From Bacteroidales bacterium (GTDB lineage Bacteria; Bacteroidota; Bacteroidia; Bacteroidales; NBLH01): a stretch of 64,000 bases of DNA. Location: NCBI GenBank assembly GCA_050291445.1, contig JBNKJW010000196.1, forward strand, positions 3,615 through 67,614. The letters run 5' to 3'. This document shows, one piece after another, positions 1,772 to 50,739 of this stretch. The notes beneath the pieces were generated by a model, which saw nothing but the letters and a program-made list of their open reading frames with translations, was not told the DNA's origin and ran no database searches. How positions within the stretch are numbered: the first letter of the stretch is position 1; every line of letters starts with the position of its first letter. The translations under genes and the position numbers were made by a program.

Positions 1772-2442
1772 GTTGAGTTGATTTTTATATTGTTATTTCG
1801 AAATAGTTGTTTTATATTTTGGAAATACCAGCGAAAAAACGGAGCAAAGAATACAAAGATTGTCTTTGATTTTAACTTCTATAGATACCTATTTAATTCT
1901 TATATAATTTAAAGCTAACAGCATATCCATAAAAGTCGATGTTAGTTGTAACCGTCAAAGCTTTTTTTATTCTCAAATCATCTTCTAATCCAATAATAAT
2001 ACCTTTGACTTGTTGGTTAACCTCTGCAAGTTCTTCTTGAACATATCCCATGTAGCGTTGTATCTGACCAACGACTAATATAATTTGTCCAATTATATAA
2101 AAAAAGGCCTGGATATTATTTTTGCCGCTTTATTTTTTCTTCCAGTTTTTTCAACTCTTCCATATCTTCATTATCCGCCTTTTGCATAAAGTGCAACTTT
2201 TGCTTTGCATCTGGTGTATTATAGAATATTATATTTTGTTCTGTTTTCATGTAATCGTTAATTAAAATGGCAAATCATCATCTTTGCCCTTTCCTTATCG
2301 CGACTAAAGTGCTTCTCCATGATGTTTAACAATTTTTCGCCTTACTGTCTGATGTGATGGTATTTTTGATTACCCCGAAATTTAGTTAAAACTTAGATGT
2401 ATATAAGTCTTTTCTATCTAATGGCTAAAGGTACAAAAACCA

Positions 2443-4425
2443 TTAAACAAAGCTTTGCTTTTCCATGGCTATCAACAAAATCTTAGCATGATCAAAAGCA
2501 ATTCCATCTGATTTTAGAACCATATAATTTGTTTTATCTCCGTTTTGCAGATAAATGGTTTCCTTAACTATCTCGGCAGACAGGTTTAACTGGTCGCTAA
2601 ATAATTCCAGGATGTATTCAGTACATTCAGCATCCTGGCTGCAATATTCTTTTGCAGCTTCTTTTTTGGATAGTTTAATTGAGAATAGTTGTGAATCAAT
2701 GGCATCATCTCCAAATTTAAGGTTAATATCCTCTGGCCTGGTAATACCAGTAAAGGCACAGGAAATAATCCAGCCCCGCGGATCGCGTTTTGGTTCGCTA
2801 AATACCTGTAATTGGTCAAGCTGAATTTCTGCAATTCCTGTTTCTTCCTGTAGTTCCCGGTGGGCGGTTTGCTCCACTGATTCGCCGGGGCGTACAAAGC
2901 CTCCGGGCAAAGCCCAGGCATTCATAAATGGGTGCTCGCCTCTTTTTATCATTACAAGCGAATGCCAAGACTTATTCTCCTCATTATTTTCCACAAAAAT
3001 CACAATGTCAGTGGCCATGGATGGCTGTTCAAATTCCCTGATGTTGTAGGCTTTTAAAAATTCAGCTTCACCATCAGGCTGAGTTTTGCTTTTTTCGTAA
3101 AGTTTAAGTAGTTCTTTTTTAGCCTGGTTGGAATAAAAAAGCGGAATAATGCCGTTGATGTAATCAGCTCCCCGGTTGGTCAATACTATCCTGTTACCCT
3201 GCATCTCCATTAAATCCTCTTTCAAAACAAATGCTACTTCCTCTTTAAAATGTTCGGCAAACGAAATGCCAAAGCGGTTTTGAAAAGCCTGCAAATCGAT
3301 AAAAGCAAAATAAAACGCAACCGAAACCATTTTTCCAATTGATTCTTCTACTGGTAAAGAATAAATATCCTGTATCGGAATTTCGTTGTTTTCGATTTTT
3401 TGTTTGTATTTGGCCAGTTGCTTATTAGCTGCCCCCTCGTTGTAGGCCAGGTAGTCAATTCCAAAAGACTGTGCCCCAAGTCCCATTCCGACATAAGGCA
3501 CTCCATAAATTACTCGTTTGGTCAAGTAATCGCTTGTTCCATAATCATTTTCAACCCTGCTAAAGGTGTTTTTGCCAACGTTTGCATAATACCCGTTTTC
3601 AATAAGCAGCTTGTAAGCTAATCGGTATTGACTAATAATCTTGTACAAAGAAACTCCTCCAGCTTCTTTTTCCAGCTTGGTTCCTTTATAGCGGTTCCTG
3701 TAAAGTGTGATGTATTCGGGCTTTAAGCCAATGGCATATCGAATAGTGTTTTCGAAGTCATCTTCGCTTTGGTGCAAAAAACCATACATCAGGTCAATAT
3801 TAAACATCTTGTAGCCCGCTTTGCGGATGTTGCTGGTGGCTTTTTCATAAATATGGGTAGTTCCTTCCCGTCCCAATTCATTCAACAGCTTTTCAGAAAT
3901 GGTTTGAATGCCCATGCTAATCCGTTTGTAACCCATTTTATAAACGGCTGCTATTTTATCGGGCTCGCGGGCTGCAATAATTGGTGTTGTTTCAATGCTA
4001 AAAACGGTATCTTTCTTAAAATCAAATGATTCCGTTAATGCATCGGTGATTTTTTGAAGATTTTCTATGCTGAGTTTAGTAGGAGTGCCACCACCCAAAT
4101 CATAACCAATTATGGGCTTATCTTTTATTATCGATTGATACATTTCAATTTCTTTTAGCAGCAACGAAACGTATAAATCTTCGGTATGATTTTGCACATC
4201 TTCCAAAACAGCATATTCGCAAAATTTACATCGTACCTGGCAAAATGGGATGTGTACATAAAGGCTCAGCTCTTTCGCTTTTGCCCATTCATCTTTCAAA
4301 AAATCAACATGCCTGGATTGATCTTTTAACCTGTATGCTTTAAAAGAGCCTGGTGTTAATGGATAGGCTGTGTTGGCATAATGATGGTATTGCAGACCCG
4401 TTTCGAATAGTTGTTTTGGGTTCAT
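2443..4425 (-). CDS. Fusion protein: HemN-like radical SAM enzyme (coproporphyrinogen III oxidase family) with a C-terminal NUDIX hydrolase domain
   Basis: ORF 2443..4509. The likely start is the internal ATG at 4425 (MNPKQLFETG), which removes the overlap with the upstream gene. It has the radical-SAM CxxxCxxC motif FCQVRCKFCEY and a HemN_C-like region (NRFGISFAEHF...LTNRGADYINGIIPLF). A canonical Nudix box, GGFVRPGESVEQTAHRELQEETGI, lies in the last ~190 aa. Confidence 0.8.
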   Translation of the reverse strand: MNPKQLFETGLQYHHYANTAYPLTPGSFKAYRLKDQSRHVDFLKDEWAKAKELSLYVHIPFCQVRCKFCEYAVLEDVQNHTEDLYVSLLLKEIEMYQSIIKDKPIIGYDLGGGTPTKLSIENLQKITDALTESFDFKKDTVFSIETTPIIAAREPDKIAAVYKMGYKRISMGIQTISEKLLNELGREGTTHIYEKATSNIRKAGYKMFNIDLMYGFLHQSEDDFENTIRYAIGLKPEYITLYRNRYKGTKLEKEAGGVSLYKIISQYRLAYKLLIENGYYANVGKNTFSRVENDYGTSDYLTKRVIYGVPYVGMGLGAQSFGIDYLAYNEGAANKQLAKYKQKIENNEIPIQDIYSLPVEESIGKMVSVAFYFAFIDLQAFQNRFGISFAEHFKEEVAFVLKEDLMEMQGNRIVLTNRGADYINGIIPLFYSNQAKKELLKLYEKSKTQPDGEAEFLKAYNIREFEQPSMATDIVIFVENNEENKSWHSLVMIKRGEHPFMNAWALPGGFVRPGESVEQTAHRELQEETGIAEIQLDQLQVFSEPKRDPRGWIISCAFTGITRPEDINLKFGDDAIDSQLFSIKLSKKEAAKEYCSQDAECTEYILELFSDQLNLSAEIVKETIYLQNGDKTNYMVLKSDGIAFDHAKILLIAMEKQSFV

Positions 4426-4462
4426 ATAATTTAAGCTTTTTTCAAAGTATTGTAAATGTAAT

Positions 4463-4702
4463 CTATTTATCTTCCGGCAAAGCCTCAAATTCCTTTTTCT
4501 TACTTTCAAACCATTTATTCATGGCTTCGGGCGATTCCATCATTTCCTGCATTTTATTCATTGCTTCAAGATGGGCTTTGTCTTCTTTTTTTAGCATTTT
4601 CATGCCATGTATTTTACTTAGTTTAGCCATTTCTTCAAAAGTAGGTGCATGGAATTTTACGTCGCAGGCACCGCCTAGTTGTTTGCAAGTCATTGTTTTC
4701 AT
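4463..4702 (-). CDS. DUF1059 family small protein
   Basis: 79-aa ORF. MKTMTCKQLGGACDVKFHAPTFEEMAKLSKIHGMKM matches the DUF1059 pattern (C..LG..CD..F.A.T.EE....H...H). It lies 37 bp upstream of the rSAM-Nudix start on the same strand. Confidence 0.7.
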   Translation of the reverse strand: MKTMTCKQLGGACDVKFHAPTFEEMAKLSKIHGMKMLKKEDKAHLEAMNKMQEMMESPEAMNKWFESKKKEFEALPEDK

Positions 4703-4721
4703 CGTTTATCGGTTTAAAAGT

Positions 4722-5357
4722 TTACTGAAAATAATCTGAATAGGGCTCGCATTCATTAAAATATTGTTTTGGAGACATACCGGATAGCTTGTTAAAATCG
4801 TTTATCATGTGCGATTGGTCATAGTATCCGCAACAATAGGTTAAGTTTGTAAGTGATATTTTTTTATTCTTTGATTTTTCATTAATGGCATTCTGAAACC
4901 TTACCACTTTTAAAAACTGCCTTGGAGAGGTTCCGATTAAGTTTAAAAATGTTCTTTCAAATTGCTTGCGACTTAGGCAAGCCTCCGAAGCCAAAAAAGA
5001 GATGTCTACAAACCCTTTTGTTCTATTAATCATCTGTAAGCTTTGATTAATTCGTTCAAAATTAACTTCGTATTTTCTTTTTTGCAAAAGTTTTAAAAGA
5101 TAGTTCTCTGCAATTTTTACTCTGTTTTCAAAACTGTCTGCCTCAAATAATTTTGATTCAATCTCGTCAACAAGGTTTTTTTTAATAAATTTAAGCGGAA
5201 TGTTCTGGTTGTGCAAATCATTTATTGGAATATTTAAAAACATTGATAAACCATGTGGTTGAAAAATAATGGAGAACAAACAAAGCTTTCCGGTCACTTT
5301 TATATCGTAATATTCTTTTAGCTGGCCAGTTAGTACCGCATTTTTTCTTTTCCGCAA
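4722..5357 (-). CDS. AraC-family transcriptional regulator, apparently N-terminally truncated
   Basis: 211-aa ORF starting at TTG. The C-terminus carries AraC-type HTH motifs (ISFLASEACLSRKQFERTFLNLIGTSPRQF; LTYCCGYYDQSHMINDFNKLSGMSPKQY). About 60 aa of the usual N-terminal sensor domain are missing, and an in-frame TGA lies immediately upstream at 5358-5360. Confidence 0.65.
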   Translation of the reverse strand: MRKRKNAVLTGQLKEYYDIKVTGKLCLFSIIFQPHGLSMFLNIPINDLHNQNIPLKFIKKNLVDEIESKLFEADSFENRVKIAENYLLKLLQKRKYEVNFERINQSLQMINRTKGFVDISFLASEACLSRKQFERTFLNLIGTSPRQFLKVVRFQNAINEKSKNKKISLTNLTYCCGYYDQSHMINDFNKLSGMSPKQYFNECEPYSDYFQ

Positions 5358-13711: not shown

Positions 13712-15619
13712 TTGGCTAAAAATAACTTTAAAGGTAACAGTATGGATTTCAAAGAGATATTAGATTTTATTTCAAAAATTGAGTTCTTTAATGAGTTAGA
13801 TCAGGCGGAGCTTACTGAATTATCAGAAAAAATGGTTGTCCAGAATTACAATACCGGACAATATTTGTTTAAAGAGAACAAAAAGCGAGAATCTGTTTTT
13901 ATTTTATATGCAGGTGATGTTGAATTGTTGAAAAAAAGCCCAAACAATGAACAAAAAAGATTGGCATATTTTTCAATGGGCGATATCATTGGCGAAGGTG
14001 CTTTTGTAGATAACAGTCCGCATTCAACTTCAACAAGAACTGTAACAGCTTGTACCATTTTCACCTTAAGCAGAAAAAGTATTGAGGAAATATTCACGAA
14101 AAATCCGGCTTTGGGTTTAAAAATAAGTAACCGGCTTGCCAAGGTAATTTCAAAACGGATGAGAAGCTCCAATACCCGATTTGTGTCATTAGGAACCCAG
14201 TACTTGTCGGGTGAAATAAGAAGAGAACATGATTTACTGGGTGAAAAAAACGTTCCTAATGAAGTGAACTATGGTATTCAAACGCTTAGGGCATTAGAAA
14301 ACTTTGATATCACAGGAGTGCCCTTAAATTTTTACCCCGACCTGGTACGAGGTTTTGCCGAAGTAAAGAAAGCTGCTGCTCTCGCAAATAAAGACTTAGG
14401 CCTGCTTGACGAAGAAATTGCAGGAGCTATCGACGAAGCTTGTGCCACAATAATTAATGGAAGATACCATAAATGCTTTGTTGTGGATATGATACAAGGG
14501 GGAGCAGGTACCTCAACCAATATGAATGCCAACGAAGTTATTGCCAATATTGCCCTTCAAAATTTAGGTTATAAAAGGGGTGAATACGAGCATATTCACC
14601 CCAATAATCATGTAAACCTCTCACAATCAACCAACGATGCTTATCCCACAGCAGTAAAAATTGCCTTGGTAAAAAGGAACAAAAAACTGGTGAAATCGTT
14701 AATGGATTTAATTGCAGCTTTTAGGGTGAAAGCAGATGAATTTTCTCACATTTTAAAAATGGGACGAACGCAATTACAGGATGCTGTGCCCATGACACTT
14801 GGACAGGCCTTTGAAGCCTATGCTATTACGCTGGAAGAAGAAATTGAAAGGCTTACCCATAATGCCAACCTCTTTTTGGAAGTAAACATGGGGGCCACTG
14901 CCATAGGTACAGGAATTAACTCCGATCCTGATTACACAAGACTAGTAATTGGCCATTTAAGAGATGTTACCGGTTTAGATATTGTCAGCGCCCGAAACCT
15001 GGTGGAAGCAACCCAGGATACCAGCTCATTTATTATGTACTCATCAGCTTTGAAGCGTTTATCTATCAAGCTTTCTAAATTATCAAATGATTTAAGGTTA
15101 TTATCATCCGGGCCAAGAGCAGGGATTAATGAAATCAACCTGCCTGCGGTTCAGCCTGGCTCATCCATTATGCCGGGTAAGGTTAATCCGGTAATTCCTG
15201 AAGTAGTTAATCAAATTGCTTTTAAAGTAATTGGAAACGACCTTACGGTGTCATTGGCCTCAGAGGCCGGGCAATTGGAATTAAATGTTATGGAACCTGT
15301 TATTGTTCAAAGCCTTTTTGAGTCGGTTGAGATGTTAATGAACGGTATGGAGACCTTACGAAGCAAGTGCATTATAGGAATAACTGCCAATGAAGAACGC
15401 TGCAAGGAGTTGGTAATGAATAGTATAGGTCTGGTTACTGCGTTGAACCCTGTTTTGGGATATGAAACTTCAACCCAGGTTGCCAAAGAAGCTCTTGAGA
15501 GGAATTGTGGGGTATATGAATTAGTGCTCGAAAAGAAATTACTGACAAAAGAAGAGCTTGATAACATCCTGAAACCTGAAAATATGCTAAAACCAAGAAA
15601 AATGAACAATAAGCATTAG
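13712..15619 (+). CDS. aspA: Cyclic-nucleotide-binding-domain protein fused to aspartate ammonia-lyase
   Basis: 635-aa ORF starting at TTG 13712 or ATG 13742. The N-terminal ~150 aa look like a CAP_ED/cNMP-binding fold (FFNELDQAELTEL...IIGEGAF...RTVTA). The remainder is a full aspartase/fumarase-family enzyme (TNMNANEVIAN, GSSIMPGKVNP signature loop). Confidence 0.9.
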   Translation: MAKNNFKGNSMDFKEILDFISKIEFFNELDQAELTELSEKMVVQNYNTGQYLFKENKKRESVFILYAGDVELLKKSPNNEQKRLAYFSMGDIIGEGAFVDNSPHSTSTRTVTACTIFTLSRKSIEEIFTKNPALGLKISNRLAKVISKRMRSSNTRFVSLGTQYLSGEIRREHDLLGEKNVPNEVNYGIQTLRALENFDITGVPLNFYPDLVRGFAEVKKAAALANKDLGLLDEEIAGAIDEACATIINGRYHKCFVVDMIQGGAGTSTNMNANEVIANIALQNLGYKRGEYEHIHPNNHVNLSQSTNDAYPTAVKIALVKRNKKLVKSLMDLIAAFRVKADEFSHILKMGRTQLQDAVPMTLGQAFEAYAITLEEEIERLTHNANLFLEVNMGATAIGTGINSDPDYTRLVIGHLRDVTGLDIVSARNLVEATQDTSSFIMYSSALKRLSIKLSKLSNDLRLLSSGPRAGINEINLPAVQPGSSIMPGKVNPVIPEVVNQIAFKVIGNDLTVSLASEAGQLELNVMEPVIVQSLFESVEMLMNGMETLRSKCIIGITANEERCKELVMNSIGLVTALNPVLGYETSTQVAKEALERNCGVYELVLEKKLLTKEELDNILKPENMLKPRKMNNKH

Positions 15620-15879
15620 TTAGGGTCTGCTGAAAAAGTCAGAAGTACATTAGATACAAATTAGCAAAGCGAAGTCGTATATTAATACTTCGAGCTGAAG
15701 CTAATGAAGTAGATGATGTGCTTCTGGCTAGCCAAAGTTTCTGACGAGATTTTATTAGGTCATAAAATATAAGTACAAAGAAAAATAAGATGTTTTACCA
15801 AAACCTTGCACTTTAAACTCTGAAAAATAGTGTAAAGCGCTAGATATTAGAAGTATAAGGGTTTTTCAGCAAGCCCTAA
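15620..15879 (+). repeat. Mosaic structured repeat, copy A (terminal inverted arms + long internal hairpin)
   Basis: The arms TTAGGGTCTGCTGAAAAA (15620-15637) and TTTTTCAGCAAGCCCTAA (15862-15879) are inverted, matching 16/18. The internal hairpin is GTCAGAAGTACAT (15638-15650) with ATGTGCTTCTGGC (15716-15728). It shares an AAACCTTGCACTTT box (15801-15814) with the other copies. It starts directly after the aspA stop codon (15617-15619). Confidence 0.8.
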
Positions 15880-16128
15880 ATAAAAAATTAATTTCTCAGA
15901 ATTGATTCTTACATTATACTAATTTGTTAACTTTGTAAGCGTGTGCTGCCTTAAGGTGGGCATATAGACCATTATTAATACTAATAAAAACCAATTGTTA
16001 TGAATACTATTATTTTAGAATACCTATCTCCATACTTTAGATTGTCATTGTCTTCACAAAATCCATGTTGTTTTTTTAAGTTAAGCAATTAAAATATATT
16101 GTTGAGTAGTTTATTTGAATAAGCCAAA

Positions 16129-16638
16129 TTGATAAATCAAAACATGGATAGTTTGAATAGATTAACTATTGTAACTTCTATATTCTTCGTCTTTTTCAGC
16201 ATACATGCTAGTTCACAATTAAAGATGAGTCAGGCAAAAAATACAATTTATGCTGATGTAGCATCCATTTATGTTGTTGGAATGTCCTCCATTAATTATG
16301 AGAGACTTATCTATTCCTGGCATGCACTAAAATTATATGGTAATGCCAGTTTTGGTGGTTGTTATAAAATGGAAACGGGGGTATTCACAGATATTATTGA
16401 TGGAAAATCTACAACCTTAAATCTGGTTTTACTTGTAGGTGGAAGAAATCATCATTTTGAAACAAATTTAGGAGCTAGGTATGTATTCTTTGATGATGAA
16501 TGGGAGAAAAGATACAACTCACTTTATCCTGAAATAAATATTGGTTATCGGTTTCAGTGGGGCAATGGCAGAGGCCTATTGTTTAAATTCTTTGTGGGTT
16601 CAACTGGAATAGGCATTGGGCTTGGAAAAGCATTTTAA
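16129..16638 (+). CDS. Hypothetical small outer-membrane beta-barrel-like protein
   Basis: 169-aa ORF with a probable ATG at 16144. It has a signal peptide (IFFVFFSIHASSQ), alternating hydrophobic pattern, Gly/aromatic-rich strands and a C-terminal ...GLGKAF. Confidence 0.4.
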   Translation: MINQNMDSLNRLTIVTSIFFVFFSIHASSQLKMSQAKNTIYADVASIYVVGMSSINYERLIYSWHALKLYGNASFGGCYKMETGVFTDIIDGKSTTLNLVLLVGGRNHHFETNLGARYVFFDDEWEKRYNSLYPEINIGYRFQWGNGRGLLFKFFVGSTGIGIGLGKAF

Positions 16639-20273: not shown

Positions 20274-21887
20274 CTATTTTTCCAAAAGTTCAGCAACCTC
20301 TGCTAATTTAATAAACTCAGCCCTGTAGCCTTCCGGATCGGCTCCTTTAGCTTCTTTAGCAGTAGCAATTACGTTTTCAAAACTTGCTTTGCCTTTGAAT
20401 TCAGAGTTACGAAGTAACAAACCAAACTCTGTAACAGCAACTGCCCACTGAAAGTTGGTTGAGAATTCTTGCTTCAGATCTTTTTCAGAGATTTTGTGCT
20501 TAATTAGCTTGCTGGTTGACGCATCTGGCTCTTTGTACCTTAGCTTTAAGGTCATTAAATCATCGCTTTTGACCACTTTTGTTTTTTGGTACTCTAGTTC
20601 ATCAACTCCCGGAACCTCTTCTTTTGAACCGGCAGGGATAATTTCGTAAATGGCAGTAACTGTGTGTCCTGCGCCAATGTCTCCAGCATCTTTTTTATCG
20701 TCATTAAAATCTTCTTTGTTTAACATTCTGTTTTCGTAACCGATTAATCTGTAGGCTTTTACTTTGGATGGGTTGAACTCAATCTGCAATTTTACATCTT
20801 TTGCAATGGTATAGATGGTGCCAAAAAACTCTTTCCCAAGTGTCTTTTTTGCCTCAAGAATGTTATCAATGTAGGCATAATTACCATTTCCTGCATTCGA
20901 CAATTTTTCCATTTTAGAGTCTTTGTAGTTGCCCATTCCAAAACCTAATACGGTCAGGGAAATACCATCATCTCTTTTTTCTTCAATTAAACGCTCCATG
21001 GCTGCATCGCTACTCGCCCCGATATTAAAATCACCATCTGTGGCTAAAATTACACGGTTGTTGCCACCTTCAATAAAGTTTTCTTTGGCTATTTTGTAGG
21101 CTAGCTTAATTCCTTCGCCCCCGGCAGTTGAACCGCCAGCTTCCAGTTTATCAAACGCTTTAATAATTTCTTCTTTTTCATCGCAACTTGTTGATGGCAA
21201 TACCACCCCTGCTGCACCTGCATAAACAACCATTGCCACCCTGTCAGACGAACGAAGTTTTTCAATTAGAATTTTGAACGACTGTTTTAATAATGGAAGT
21301 TTATTTGGATCACTCATTGAACCAGAAACATCAATTAAAAAAACCAGGTTGGTTGATGGCAAATCTTTTACTTCAATTTCTTTTCCTTTTAGTCCAATTG
21401 AAATTAATTGGTGCCCGCTATTCCATGGGCAGGTGGCCAGCTCAAGGTTGACAGAAAAAGGATGTTCTCCCGTTGGCAATGGGTAGTTGTAGTTGAAATA
21501 GTTAACCATTTCTTCAATTCGCACAGCATCCGGAGGTGGTAGCTGGTTACCTTCTAAAAATCGGCGAACATTTGCATAAGCAGCACGATCAACATCTACC
21601 GAAAAAGTTGATAAGGGATTTGTTAATGCACTTACAAAGGCATTTTCGGTAATTTTGTCGTACGATTCGGTGTTAAAATCTTCTTTTTTGGCGTCTTTTT
21701 CCATTGGTTCACTTTCCTTGTCCATCATAACAAGTCCGTCATCAACAGATTCAACAACATCCTCTTCGTAGTACCGCTGTTTGGCATTATCACCTGTTTT
21801 TCCACCAAAGCAACTTGCCATTAATACTATCAAAAGGGCTACAATTGAAAATTTGACGGTGTTTTTTAAATAATTTGTTGTTTTCAT
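20274..21887 (-). CDS. von Willebrand factor type A (VWA) domain lipoprotein, YfbK-like
   Basis: ORF 20274..21977. The likely start is ATG 21887 (MKTTNYLKN...LMASCFGG lipobox). It has the MIDAS motif LVFLIDVSGSMS and a C-terminal DUF3520-like region. Confidence 0.85.
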   Translation of the reverse strand: MKTTNYLKNTVKFSIVALLIVLMASCFGGKTGDNAKQRYYEEDVVESVDDGLVMMDKESEPMEKDAKKEDFNTESYDKITENAFVSALTNPLSTFSVDVDRAAYANVRRFLEGNQLPPPDAVRIEEMVNYFNYNYPLPTGEHPFSVNLELATCPWNSGHQLISIGLKGKEIEVKDLPSTNLVFLIDVSGSMSDPNKLPLLKQSFKILIEKLRSSDRVAMVVYAGAAGVVLPSTSCDEKEEIIKAFDKLEAGGSTAGGEGIKLAYKIAKENFIEGGNNRVILATDGDFNIGASSDAAMERLIEEKRDDGISLTVLGFGMGNYKDSKMEKLSNAGNGNYAYIDNILEAKKTLGKEFFGTIYTIAKDVKLQIEFNPSKVKAYRLIGYENRMLNKEDFNDDKKDAGDIGAGHTVTAIYEIIPAGSKEEVPGVDELEYQKTKVVKSDDLMTLKLRYKEPDASTSKLIKHKISEKDLKQEFSTNFQWAVAVTEFGLLLRNSEFKGKASFENVIATAKEAKGADPEGYRAEFIKLAEVAELLEK

Positions 21888-26452: not shown

Positions 26453-26509
26453 TTTACCATTGCAATTTATATCTTGCTTTTGGACTAAAATATAAATGCA
26501 ATTGGTATA
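26453..26509. other. AT-rich imperfect hairpin
   Basis: ACCATTGCAATTTATAT (26456-26472) pairs with ATATAAATGCAATTGGT (26490-26506), with one register slip. Confidence 0.5.
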
Positions 26510-26513
26510 ACAT

Positions 26514-26805
26514 TGGGCCTGCTGAAAAAGTCAGAGGTACATTAGCTACAACTTAGCGAAGCGATATCTTCGACCAAAGGGAGAAAACTTAGCAAAGCGA
26601 AGATGTATATGAATACTTCGAGCTGAAGCTAATGAAGTAGATGATGTGCCTCTGGCTAGGATTATAATCATTAGTTTTTTGTTACTTGAAGATAAAGTTA
26701 ATGCAAGGAAAAATTACTATTTTTTTTTAAACCTTTGCACTTTCTTGCCACTTTTTTCATGTAAATATTTAATTTTAACAGGCTTAGGCGTTTTTCAGTG
26801 AGCCC
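26514..26805 (+). repeat. Mosaic structured repeat, copy B (left module as in copy A, right module as in copy C)
   Basis: The arms are GGGCCTGCTGAAAAA (26515-26529) and TTTTTCAGTGAGCCC (26791-26805). The hairpin is GTCAGAGGTACAT (26530-26542) with ATGTGCCTCTGGC (26644-26656). The right ~150 nt (26657-26805) are ~85-90 % identical by eye to 50588-50736. TAACAT occurs on both flanks (26508-26513, 26806-26811). Confidence 0.8.
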
Positions 26806-26944
26806 TAACATACTGTTTTAAGTTTTGATAGTGGTAAACAACGGCCTAAGCAATTTTTTTTAAGATTATGCGGTAGTTTACACCTTTGACTATTTTTTTT
26901 ATATAACAGATTGCCTCATCCTCGTACCTCGTTTTCGCAATGTA

Positions 26945-50122: not shown

Positions 50123-50512
50123 GTGGCCAGAAAAATACTGATAGTAGAAGATGATAAAATGTTGTGCACCATATTTGAAATGTTCCTGACAGATCTAGGA
50201 TATGAACTTACAGGCTTTTCACAGACAGGTGCTGATGCAATTAGCAAATGTGAGGAAAATCCCCCAGATGTGGTTTTGATGGATATTCACCTTAAAGGTG
50301 ATGTTGATGGAATTGATACCGCAAAAAAAATTCACGAAGCATTTAATATCCCTGTTGTTTACGTTACCAGTGATATTGAACAAGAAACTATCCTCAAAGC
50401 AATTTATAAAAACACCTACGGCTTTTTAATGAAACCTATTTATCAGTCTTCTTTAAGGGTAGCAATAGAATTTGCTTTTGCTAAACATATTTACGATAAT
50501 TCTGAAAACTGA
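50123..50512 (+). CDS. Stand-alone response regulator receiver (CheY-like) protein
   Basis: 129-aa ORF with a GTG start. It has KILIVEDD, DVVLMDIHL (phospho-acceptor Asp), PVVYVTS and a conserved Lys in LMKP. There is no output domain and no kinase gene nearby. Confidence 0.85.
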   Translation: MARKILIVEDDKMLCTIFEMFLTDLGYELTGFSQTGADAISKCEENPPDVVLMDIHLKGDVDGIDTAKKIHEAFNIPVVYVTSDIEQETILKAIYKNTYGFLMKPIYQSSLRVAIEFAFAKHIYDNSEN

Positions 50513-50739
50513 GCCCTATATCTTTGTATTAATTAAGGTCTGGGCTGCACATTTTACTGTTATTTAATATGATGCCGCTCAACTGGCTAGCATAATAATC
50601 ATTAGTTTTTTGCTACTTGAAGGTGAAGTTAATGCAAGGAAAAATTACTATTTTTTAAAACACCTTTGCACTTTTTACAACTTCTTTTATGTAAGTGTTT
50701 AATTTTAATAGGCTTAGGCGTTTTTTAGTGAGCCCTATT
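50510..50739 (+). repeat. Mosaic structured repeat, copy C, bounded by a 10-bp direct repeat
   Basis: TGAGCCCTAT occurs at 50510-50519, overlapping the regulator's TGA stop, and again at 50730-50739. The shortened closing arms are GGGCTGCAC (50542-50550) and GTGAGCCC (50729-50736). It has a CTGGCTAG box (50583-50590) and a CCTTTGCACTTT box (50664-50675). The right ~150 nt match copy B. Confidence 0.75.

Follow-up and report, generated by a model that had tools for sequence, protein, structure and literature searches.

A probable MITE with ISMae6-like ends beside aspA in a Bacteroidales genome, carrying an internal hairpin selected on one strand

A structured repeat adjoins the 3′ end of aspA in the 64-kb stretch of Bacteroidales DNA analyzed here (the window), and the question that it raises is whether it is an RNA, such as a 3′-UTR element or sRNA, or a mobile DNA hairpin; a first-pass annotation, made from the letters of the window, had allowed either an RNA or a single-stranded DNA (ssDNA) hairpin of a REP/IS200-type element. 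We conclude that the repeat is very probably a MITE with ends like those of the insertion sequence (IS) ISMae6, moved by a DDE transposase and carrying an internal stem-loop, hairpin 1, that is selected on one strand and most likely as RNA. The first-pass proposal of a non-autonomous mobile element thus stands, and its REP/IS200 assignment does not: the family has terminal inverted repeats (TIRs), target duplications, and DDE partners.

The repeat occurs three times in the window, always on the + strand. Copy A (15621-15878, +, 258 nt) lies directly 3′ of the aspA stop codon TAG (15617-15619). Its left TIR (IRL), TAGGGTCTGCTGAAAAAG, occupies 15621-15638 (+) and matches the ends of autonomous IS5-family elements; its right TIR (IRR), GTTTTTCAGCAAGCCCTA, occupies 15861-15878 (+) and was delimited by enrichment of the arm motif and by pairing with inverted copies at related loci. 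The arms, TTAGGGTCTGCTGAAAAA and TTTTTCAGCAAGCCCTAA, pair at 16 of 18 positions, as first reported. Since the arm motif occurs five times in the window against 0.61 expected, and since the full-length fold of copy A reaches −81.6 kcal/mol on the + strand (z = −7.75 versus shuffled sequence) and −65.0 kcal/mol on the − strand (z = −5.8), the structure of the repeat is far beyond chance. Copy B (26513-26807, +; IRL 26513-26530, IRR 26790-26807) is a full element in the 1.1-kb interval that separates two − strand genes; its hairpin 1 (26529-26659, +) includes a 36-nt extra mini-hairpin, and the arms of its hairpin 2 lie near 26702 and 26733 (+). Copy C (50583-50737, +; IRR 50720-50737) is a 3′ half alone, 89% identical to the 3′ half of copy B, and has neither IRL nor hairpin 1. 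The left side of copy C starts at the stop codon of a response-regulator ORF (50123-50512), where the string TGAGCCCTAT at 50510-50519 is a second occurrence of the final 10 nt of the right-end region (50729-50738), as if a second right-end remnant lay there.

Only short, unconserved ORFs overlap copy A, and the covariation of its stem, described below, is incompatible with coding, so we regard the element as non-coding. A covariance-model search of Rfam, suggested in the first-pass annotation, turned up no family: Rfam 15 gave no match in the window at gathering scores, and at E up to 10 only chance-level matches to eukaryotic families. Neither tRNA nor tmRNA was found in the window, and a blastn search with copy A of plasmid and phage collections returned no match. 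The aspA gene itself (13742-15619) encodes a cNMP-binding/aspartate ammonia-lyase fusion (Pfam cNMP_binding, Lyase_1, and FumaraseC_C), an unusual architecture whose N-terminal cNMP_binding domain suggests direct control of the enzyme by cNMP.

Judged by sequence, the outer arms of copy A are the TIRs of an ISMae6-type insertion sequence of the IS5 family. A search with the right arm, GTTTTTYAGYRAGCCCTA, in one genome per species returned at least 116 loci, at ∼45 of which the right arm is preceded, at a distance of 77-480 nt, by an inverted copy, TAGGGCTTGCTGAAAAAC; loci with paired ends come from Bacteroidota, cyanobacteria, Thermotogota, Spirochaetota, Zixibacteria, and Chlorobi. Autonomous elements that share these ends and encode a DDE transposase are present in Spirochaetota, cyanobacteria, and Bacteroidota. 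That at 3663-5229 of locus L010 is a 1567-bp IS with ends TTAGGGTTTGCTGAAAAAC and GTTTTTCAGCAAACCCTAA, whose 471-aa transposase scores 425.9 bits on the NCBIfam model NF033578 “IS5 family transposase” (cut-off 275) and carries the Pfam domains DUF772 and DDE_Tnp_1_2; L028 is a frameshifted full-length copy of 1660 bp with the same ends, and L026 is an intermediate form, a 907-nt derivative with an internal deletion. A tblastn search of annotated plasmids added as relatives ISMae6, ISAcma17, and a multi-copy IS of the Bacteroidota genus Persicobacter. The Persicobacter IS (L124) scores 308.2 bits on NF033578 (cut-off 275) and has TATTTA on both flanks, while ISMae6 (L125), with the same ends, has TAATTA on both flanks. 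ISMae6 of Microcystis aeruginosa has been described as an IS5-family element of 1686 bp (PMC2779907). Near-identical TIRs (TAGGGTYTGCTGAA...) and a flanking TA-NN-TA duplication thus unite the window element with ISMae6, ISAcma17, and the IS of Persicobacter sp. JZB09, whereas it differs from these ISs of 1.6-1.7 kb in being only ∼260 nt, in lacking a transposase, and in carrying hairpin 1. Cyanobacterial relatives (L004, L015, L043, and L097) are ∼210 nt. No transposase homolog was found in the 64-kb window or in the 8 kb of sequence surrounding each of the copies from the same MAGs, and we infer that a DDE transposase of the ISMae6-like group would mobilize the element in trans.

The first-pass annotation had argued that selection acts on a single-stranded fold and had included the outer arms in that argument. 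A sequence check bears out the three arm differences between copies A and B that it reported as staying pairable. Across 91 copies, TIR positions 1-16 pair in 80-100%, and the mismatches comprise 80 G.T versus 51 A.C, a weak wobble bias, as would be predicted if the two ends were evolving together as binding sites for a protein on double-stranded DNA. Because the arms are shared TIRs and the wobble bias is weak, they give no evidence for a single-stranded fold; for that part of the argument only the inner hairpin, treated below, has held. Nor does the common + orientation of the copies serve as evidence, since three copies agree by chance in 1 of 4 cases and the 97 copies assembled here show no significant orientation bias relative to genes (22 co-oriented with both neighbors, 13 opposed). 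The right end of ISMae6 (L125 1950-2010) has a short hairpin downstream of the transposase stop codon, directly against the TTTTT of the right TIR; part of this terminator-like structure is supplied by the IS end itself, and the MITEs have not retained it.

Across the family we find what characterizes a MITE: short non-coding elements with TIRs, a target duplication, ends shared with ISs, and polymorphism at the site of insertion, dispersed over many Bacteroidota genomes and metagenomes. When the hexamer immediately outside GGG...CCC on both sides is scored, 51 of 97 short copies have a perfect 6-nt TANNTA direct repeat and 19 have one with a single mismatch; ∼12 of those that fail the 6-nt test carry a perfect 7-nt TANNNTA repeat. 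Both TA dinucleotides of the target are invariant, so the duplication is formally of 2-3, 4-5, or 6-7 bp, between which sequence cannot decide. For copy A, the TA-NN(N)-TA repeats of its relatives and the boundary of the match to contig L117 place the left flank, TAGTTA, at 15617-15622 (+); this hexamer contains the stop codon TAG, and its last two nucleotides (15621-15622) are the first two of the TIR TAGGG. The flanking duplications of relatives therefore make the stop codon part of the duplicated target, and the first-pass statement that the element begins at the nucleotide after the aspA stop codon is to be amended: copy A does adjoin the TAG, and the element proper begins at 15621 or 15623. 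The right flank of copy A, TAAATA (15877-15882, +), does not match TAGTTA. Copy B belongs to the 7-nt TA-NNN-TA class: 6 of the 7 positions of its left flank, TAACATT (26508-26514, +), are identical in its right flank, TAACATA (26806-26812).

Contigs encoding an identical aspA protein show the site both with and without the element. The match of contig L117 to the window (99.5% identical DNA across 3881 nt) stops at 15622, and past a single TAGTTA the contig continues into unrelated sequence with other genes, the element being absent at the predicted boundary; in L118 and L119 it is present. For the aspA-adjacent insertion we predict a right junction that reads ...CCC TAGTTA AACCATTTTT. The right flank that copy A does have recurs in assembly GCA_050292335.1 (L120), where the adjoining element has TAAATA on each flank and another left neighbor, and in L121 with a third left neighbor; a 34-nt segment is present in L120 and L121 and absent from copy A and L118. 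In copy A, the 5′ portion of the aspA-adjacent copy thus continues into the 3′ portion of a copy that sits, in other assemblies, at a TAAATA site. The unlike flanks of copy A, the duplication in L120, and the distribution of the 34-nt segment together are best explained either by recombination between two copies or by an assembly that joined them across the repeat. In L120, positions 1685-1875, immediately to the left of the MITE, duplicate window positions 20275-20465 (191 nt; 4.4 kb downstream), a sign of further rearrangement around the counterpart of copy A.

A second feature links the MITEs to their parent ISs. The 3′ arm of hairpin 2, AAAACCTTGCACTTT (15800-15814, +), bears a motif common to those ISs, and its 5′ partner TGCAAGG has decayed in copy A. 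In every phylum, autonomous ISs included, TGCAAGG-N24-CCTTGCA lies at a fixed ∼68/99 nt from the left end (e.g. L010 5109-5229, L124 446-596, and window 26700-26745), and this subterminal motif, together with its spacing, is a further likeness of the family to ISMae6-type ISs; in a Bacteroidota subfamily of the MITEs it has moved by ∼72 nt, with hairpin 1 between the left end and the motif. In L010 and L124 the motif ends just before the transposase ATG, a placement that makes the + orientation of the window copies the transposase-sense one. It is kept as sequence and does not covary, and may be a protein-binding or translation-control site.

Hairpin 1 is an imperfect stem-loop of ∼93 nt (15637-15729, +), delimited by minimum-energy folds, covariation, and a covariance model. 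Its 13-bp helix pairs GTCAGAAGTACAT (15638-15650) with ATGTGCTTCTGGC (15716-15728) through 11 Watson–Crick and 2 G.U pairs, and its apex is GAAGTCGTATATTAATACTTC (15672-15692, +). The first-pass reading of this region was accurate: the 13-bp helix and the inner TTAGC..GCGAAG / CTTCG..GCTAA helices are found both by pairing and in the minimum-energy fold of copy A, and position 7 of the helix is A-T in copy A and G-C in copy B. Our covariance model R1 (IRL plus hairpin 1) scores 123.3 bits at copy A and has no match in the window beyond copies A and B. When 100 loci were scanned with this model, hairpin 1 was found only in Bacteroidota loci and always joined to the left end, with no stand-alone hairpin among them; on autonomous elements the model matches the terminal repeat only. 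The hairpin is missing from the autonomous ISs L010, L028, L124, and L125, checked directly, and from L064 and L082/L083, as judged by the scan of loci.

Searching metagenomes with the left end and the apex of the hairpin as anchors added at least 120 loci, including at least 82 complete elements, which range from 186 to 458 nt and most often measure 237-248 nt. Among the matches listed, no hairpin-1 site (0 of 123) has within it a transposase belonging to the element. The one transposase that adjoins a hairpin-1 site, in locus L128, comes from a different IS inside the right end of the MITE; this IS5-like element (2237-4129) is nested in the right TIR of a hairpin-1 MITE, has ends GGCACTTTCAKAAGTA, and encodes a 450-aa transposase that scores 160 bits on NF033578, under the cut-off.

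Hairpin 1 varies in length as well as in sequence. A 34-36-nt mini-hairpin lies inside it in copy B (26554-26589), L120 (1950-1983), and L121, and not in copy A or L118; flanked by direct repeats CTTAGCRAAGCGA, it resembles a partial tandem duplication of the apex. L197 has an insertion inside hairpin 1, and L022 a deletion between 8-nt direct repeats. The closed stem is retained by the deletion and duplication variants (L013, L022, copy B, L120, and L197), and a 2×2 GA/GA internal loop is present in 14 of the 36 representatives described next.

To the 36 hairpin-1 representatives of <90% identity we applied MAFFT, so that the alignment was not fitted to structure. Standard pairs fill 95.5% of cells, compared to 76.5% after shuffling and 32-44% with slid partners; double changes occur in 19 of 28 pairs, in 192 cells versus 56 expected; and the covariation score is 0.583, compared to 0.22 for shuffled and 0.06-0.12 for slid alignments, a value that none of 500 shuffles reaches. 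Twelve copies found solely via the right end give a like result (94.5% paired, with double changes in 18 of 29 pairs), and the covariation that the first-pass annotation had proposed to seek in a larger copy set is therefore strong for hairpin 1. Its wobble is one-sided: ∼114 cells are G.U and ∼11 are A.C (about 10:1), and three positions are G.U in most lineages and otherwise Watson–Crick only. Over 91 copies the mean energy of hairpin 1 is −37.2 kcal/mol on the + strand versus −24.6 kcal/mol on the − strand, the + strand hairpin being the more stable in 88 of them; folded as DNA, hairpin 1 reaches −15.8 kcal/mol (z = −4.4) on the + strand versus −10.9 kcal/mol on the − strand. Compensatory changes, together with tolerance of G.U and not of A.C, point to selection on the fold of the + (transposase-sense) strand. 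The comparison of copies thus shows, by its pattern of substitution, selection acting on the sense-strand fold of hairpin 1, which most likely works as an RNA stem-loop.

The element would be transcribed, for example by read-through from an adjacent gene, and hairpin 1 would then fold as RNA; selection on it would act at the level of the element lineage, and candidate roles are transcript stabilization or processing, or control of the transposase. It could also be a new class of functional ncRNA module, acquired by a MITE, spread with it through Bacteroidota genomes, and recognized by a partner, a suggestion that we regard as tentative and less likely than not. On that suggestion, a protein or RNA partner would recognize the apex GTATA-NNN-ATAC, the tandem G.U pairs, and the frequent GA/GA loop, and hairpin 1 would act on the partner transposase or on transcripts of adjoining genes. 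As for an intrinsic terminator, none was found at 15450-16200, where an A-rich stretch follows hairpin 1, and a hairpin abuts the right-end T-run in just 7% of copies. On the + strand, the Bacteroidota −7 promoter motif TAnnTTTG shows no conservation.

Several other explanations of the conserved pairing deserve weighing. IS10 and IS200 have a leader structure that blocks read-through translation of the transposase, and hairpin 1 might likewise be the leftover 5′ UTR of an unsampled Bacteroidota parent IS, regulating the transposase there and merely inherited by the MITEs. The position of hairpin 1 between IRL and hairpin 2 is that of the transposase 5′ leader in L010 and L124, the favored strand is the transposase-sense strand, and the Persicobacter IS leader shares AATACTTCGA with the hairpin-1 apex; yet hairpin 1 is in none of the autonomous elements examined, and the count of 0 in 123 for sites enclosing a transposase, which holds among the matches listed and leaves rare full-length copies possible, also makes us think this origin rather unlikely. 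The pairing might instead be kept by the mechanics of mutation, with selfish expansion of a palindrome. Template-switch repair of quasipalindromes mimics compensation and could create some double changes without selection, and slippage-type variants do occur inside hairpin 1 (copy B, L120, L121, L197, and L022). Template switching yields perfect complements, however, and predicts neither three positions held at G.U and alternating with Watson–Crick only, nor a ∼10:1 excess of G.U over A.C among copies inserted in both orientations; as the source of the whole pattern we find it improbable.

Strand specificity by itself is compatible with DNA as well as RNA, and hairpin 1 could act as ssDNA, on a single strand, while the element is replicated or transposed, as REP or IS200-IS605 elements do. 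G.T pairs in ssDNA would also fit the strand-specific tolerance of wobble, the + strand is the more stable as folded DNA (given above), and the absence of bias in orientation relative to genes suits a function exercised by the element and not by a transcript. The window family resembles the REP/RAYT system in being repeated extragenic palindromic DNA with a hairpin read on one strand. REPs are 20-40-nt palindromes without TIRs or target duplications, served by HUH transposases (RAYT, IS200/IS605-like Y1), whereas the window family has TIRs, duplications, and DDE partners, the hallmarks of double-strand cut-and-paste or copy-in transposition; the partners found are all DDE and none HUH/Y1, and the REP hallmarks are absent, so that action as ssDNA appears unlikely. 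We give very little credence to the remaining explanation, that the whole element, with its arms paired, is a cis-acting 3′-UTR RNA element or terminator of aspA. It starts right at the stop codon, its full-length fold is very stable, and the family prefers gene 3′ ends (61 of 87 left neighbors and 52 of 86 right neighbors point toward the element); but a contig with an identical aspA protein lacks the element, copy B sits between two opposite-strand genes, and there is no hairpin-plus-U-tract. Because the preference holds on both sides, it reflects tolerated insertion sites or TA-rich targets, and in many copies a TA is provided by an abutting stop codon.

Read as a MITE with a one-strand-selected hairpin, most likely RNA, the element has counterparts among bacterial MITEs with RNA-level hairpins, namely ERIC of Enterobacteriaceae, Correia/NEMIS of Neisseria, RUP of pneumococcus, and Nezha and the MaeMITEs of cyanobacteria (PMC3184786, PMC10969869). 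Like ERIC, Correia, RUP, and Nezha, it is small, non-coding, AT-rich, and intergenic, with TIRs, TA-containing duplications, derivation from an IS, and stable predicted transcript folds; unlike them, it has an ISMae6-like IS5 parent and Bacteroidota hosts, and whereas their folds arise mainly by end-to-end pairing, its covarying fold is internal, strand-specific, and beside one end. MITECca01 of Cardinium (Bacteroidota), ∼240 bp and derived from the IS982-family ISCca4 (PMC9769881), is likewise an IS-derived MITE in a Bacteroidota genome; its IS982 parent and different ends mark it as an unrelated family. We found no description of the hairpin-1 MITE subfamily in Rfam or in the literature, the latter covered by a limited search with ISfinder outside it; full-text search with the end sequence gave unrelated primer matches only.

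The element itself is ordinary in kind, and the structured hairpin 1 is its notable module. One set of IS ends is common to several phyla, and one lineage has gained an internal, strand-selected hairpin; if hairpin 1 is a functional RNA, the MITE would be distributing a structured RNA module across Bacteroidota, whose RNA biology is poorly known. For annotation, we recommend that copies be masked as MITEs of the ISMae6-like IS5 group and not recorded as RNA genes or as regulatory sites of aspA. The element also marks assembly breaks or rearrangements, as where three assemblies join one right flank to three left flanks, and many metagenome contigs end inside it: about one-third of the hairpin-1 matches (L126-L245) lie within ∼200 nt of a contig end, and these repeats evidently break short-read assemblies.
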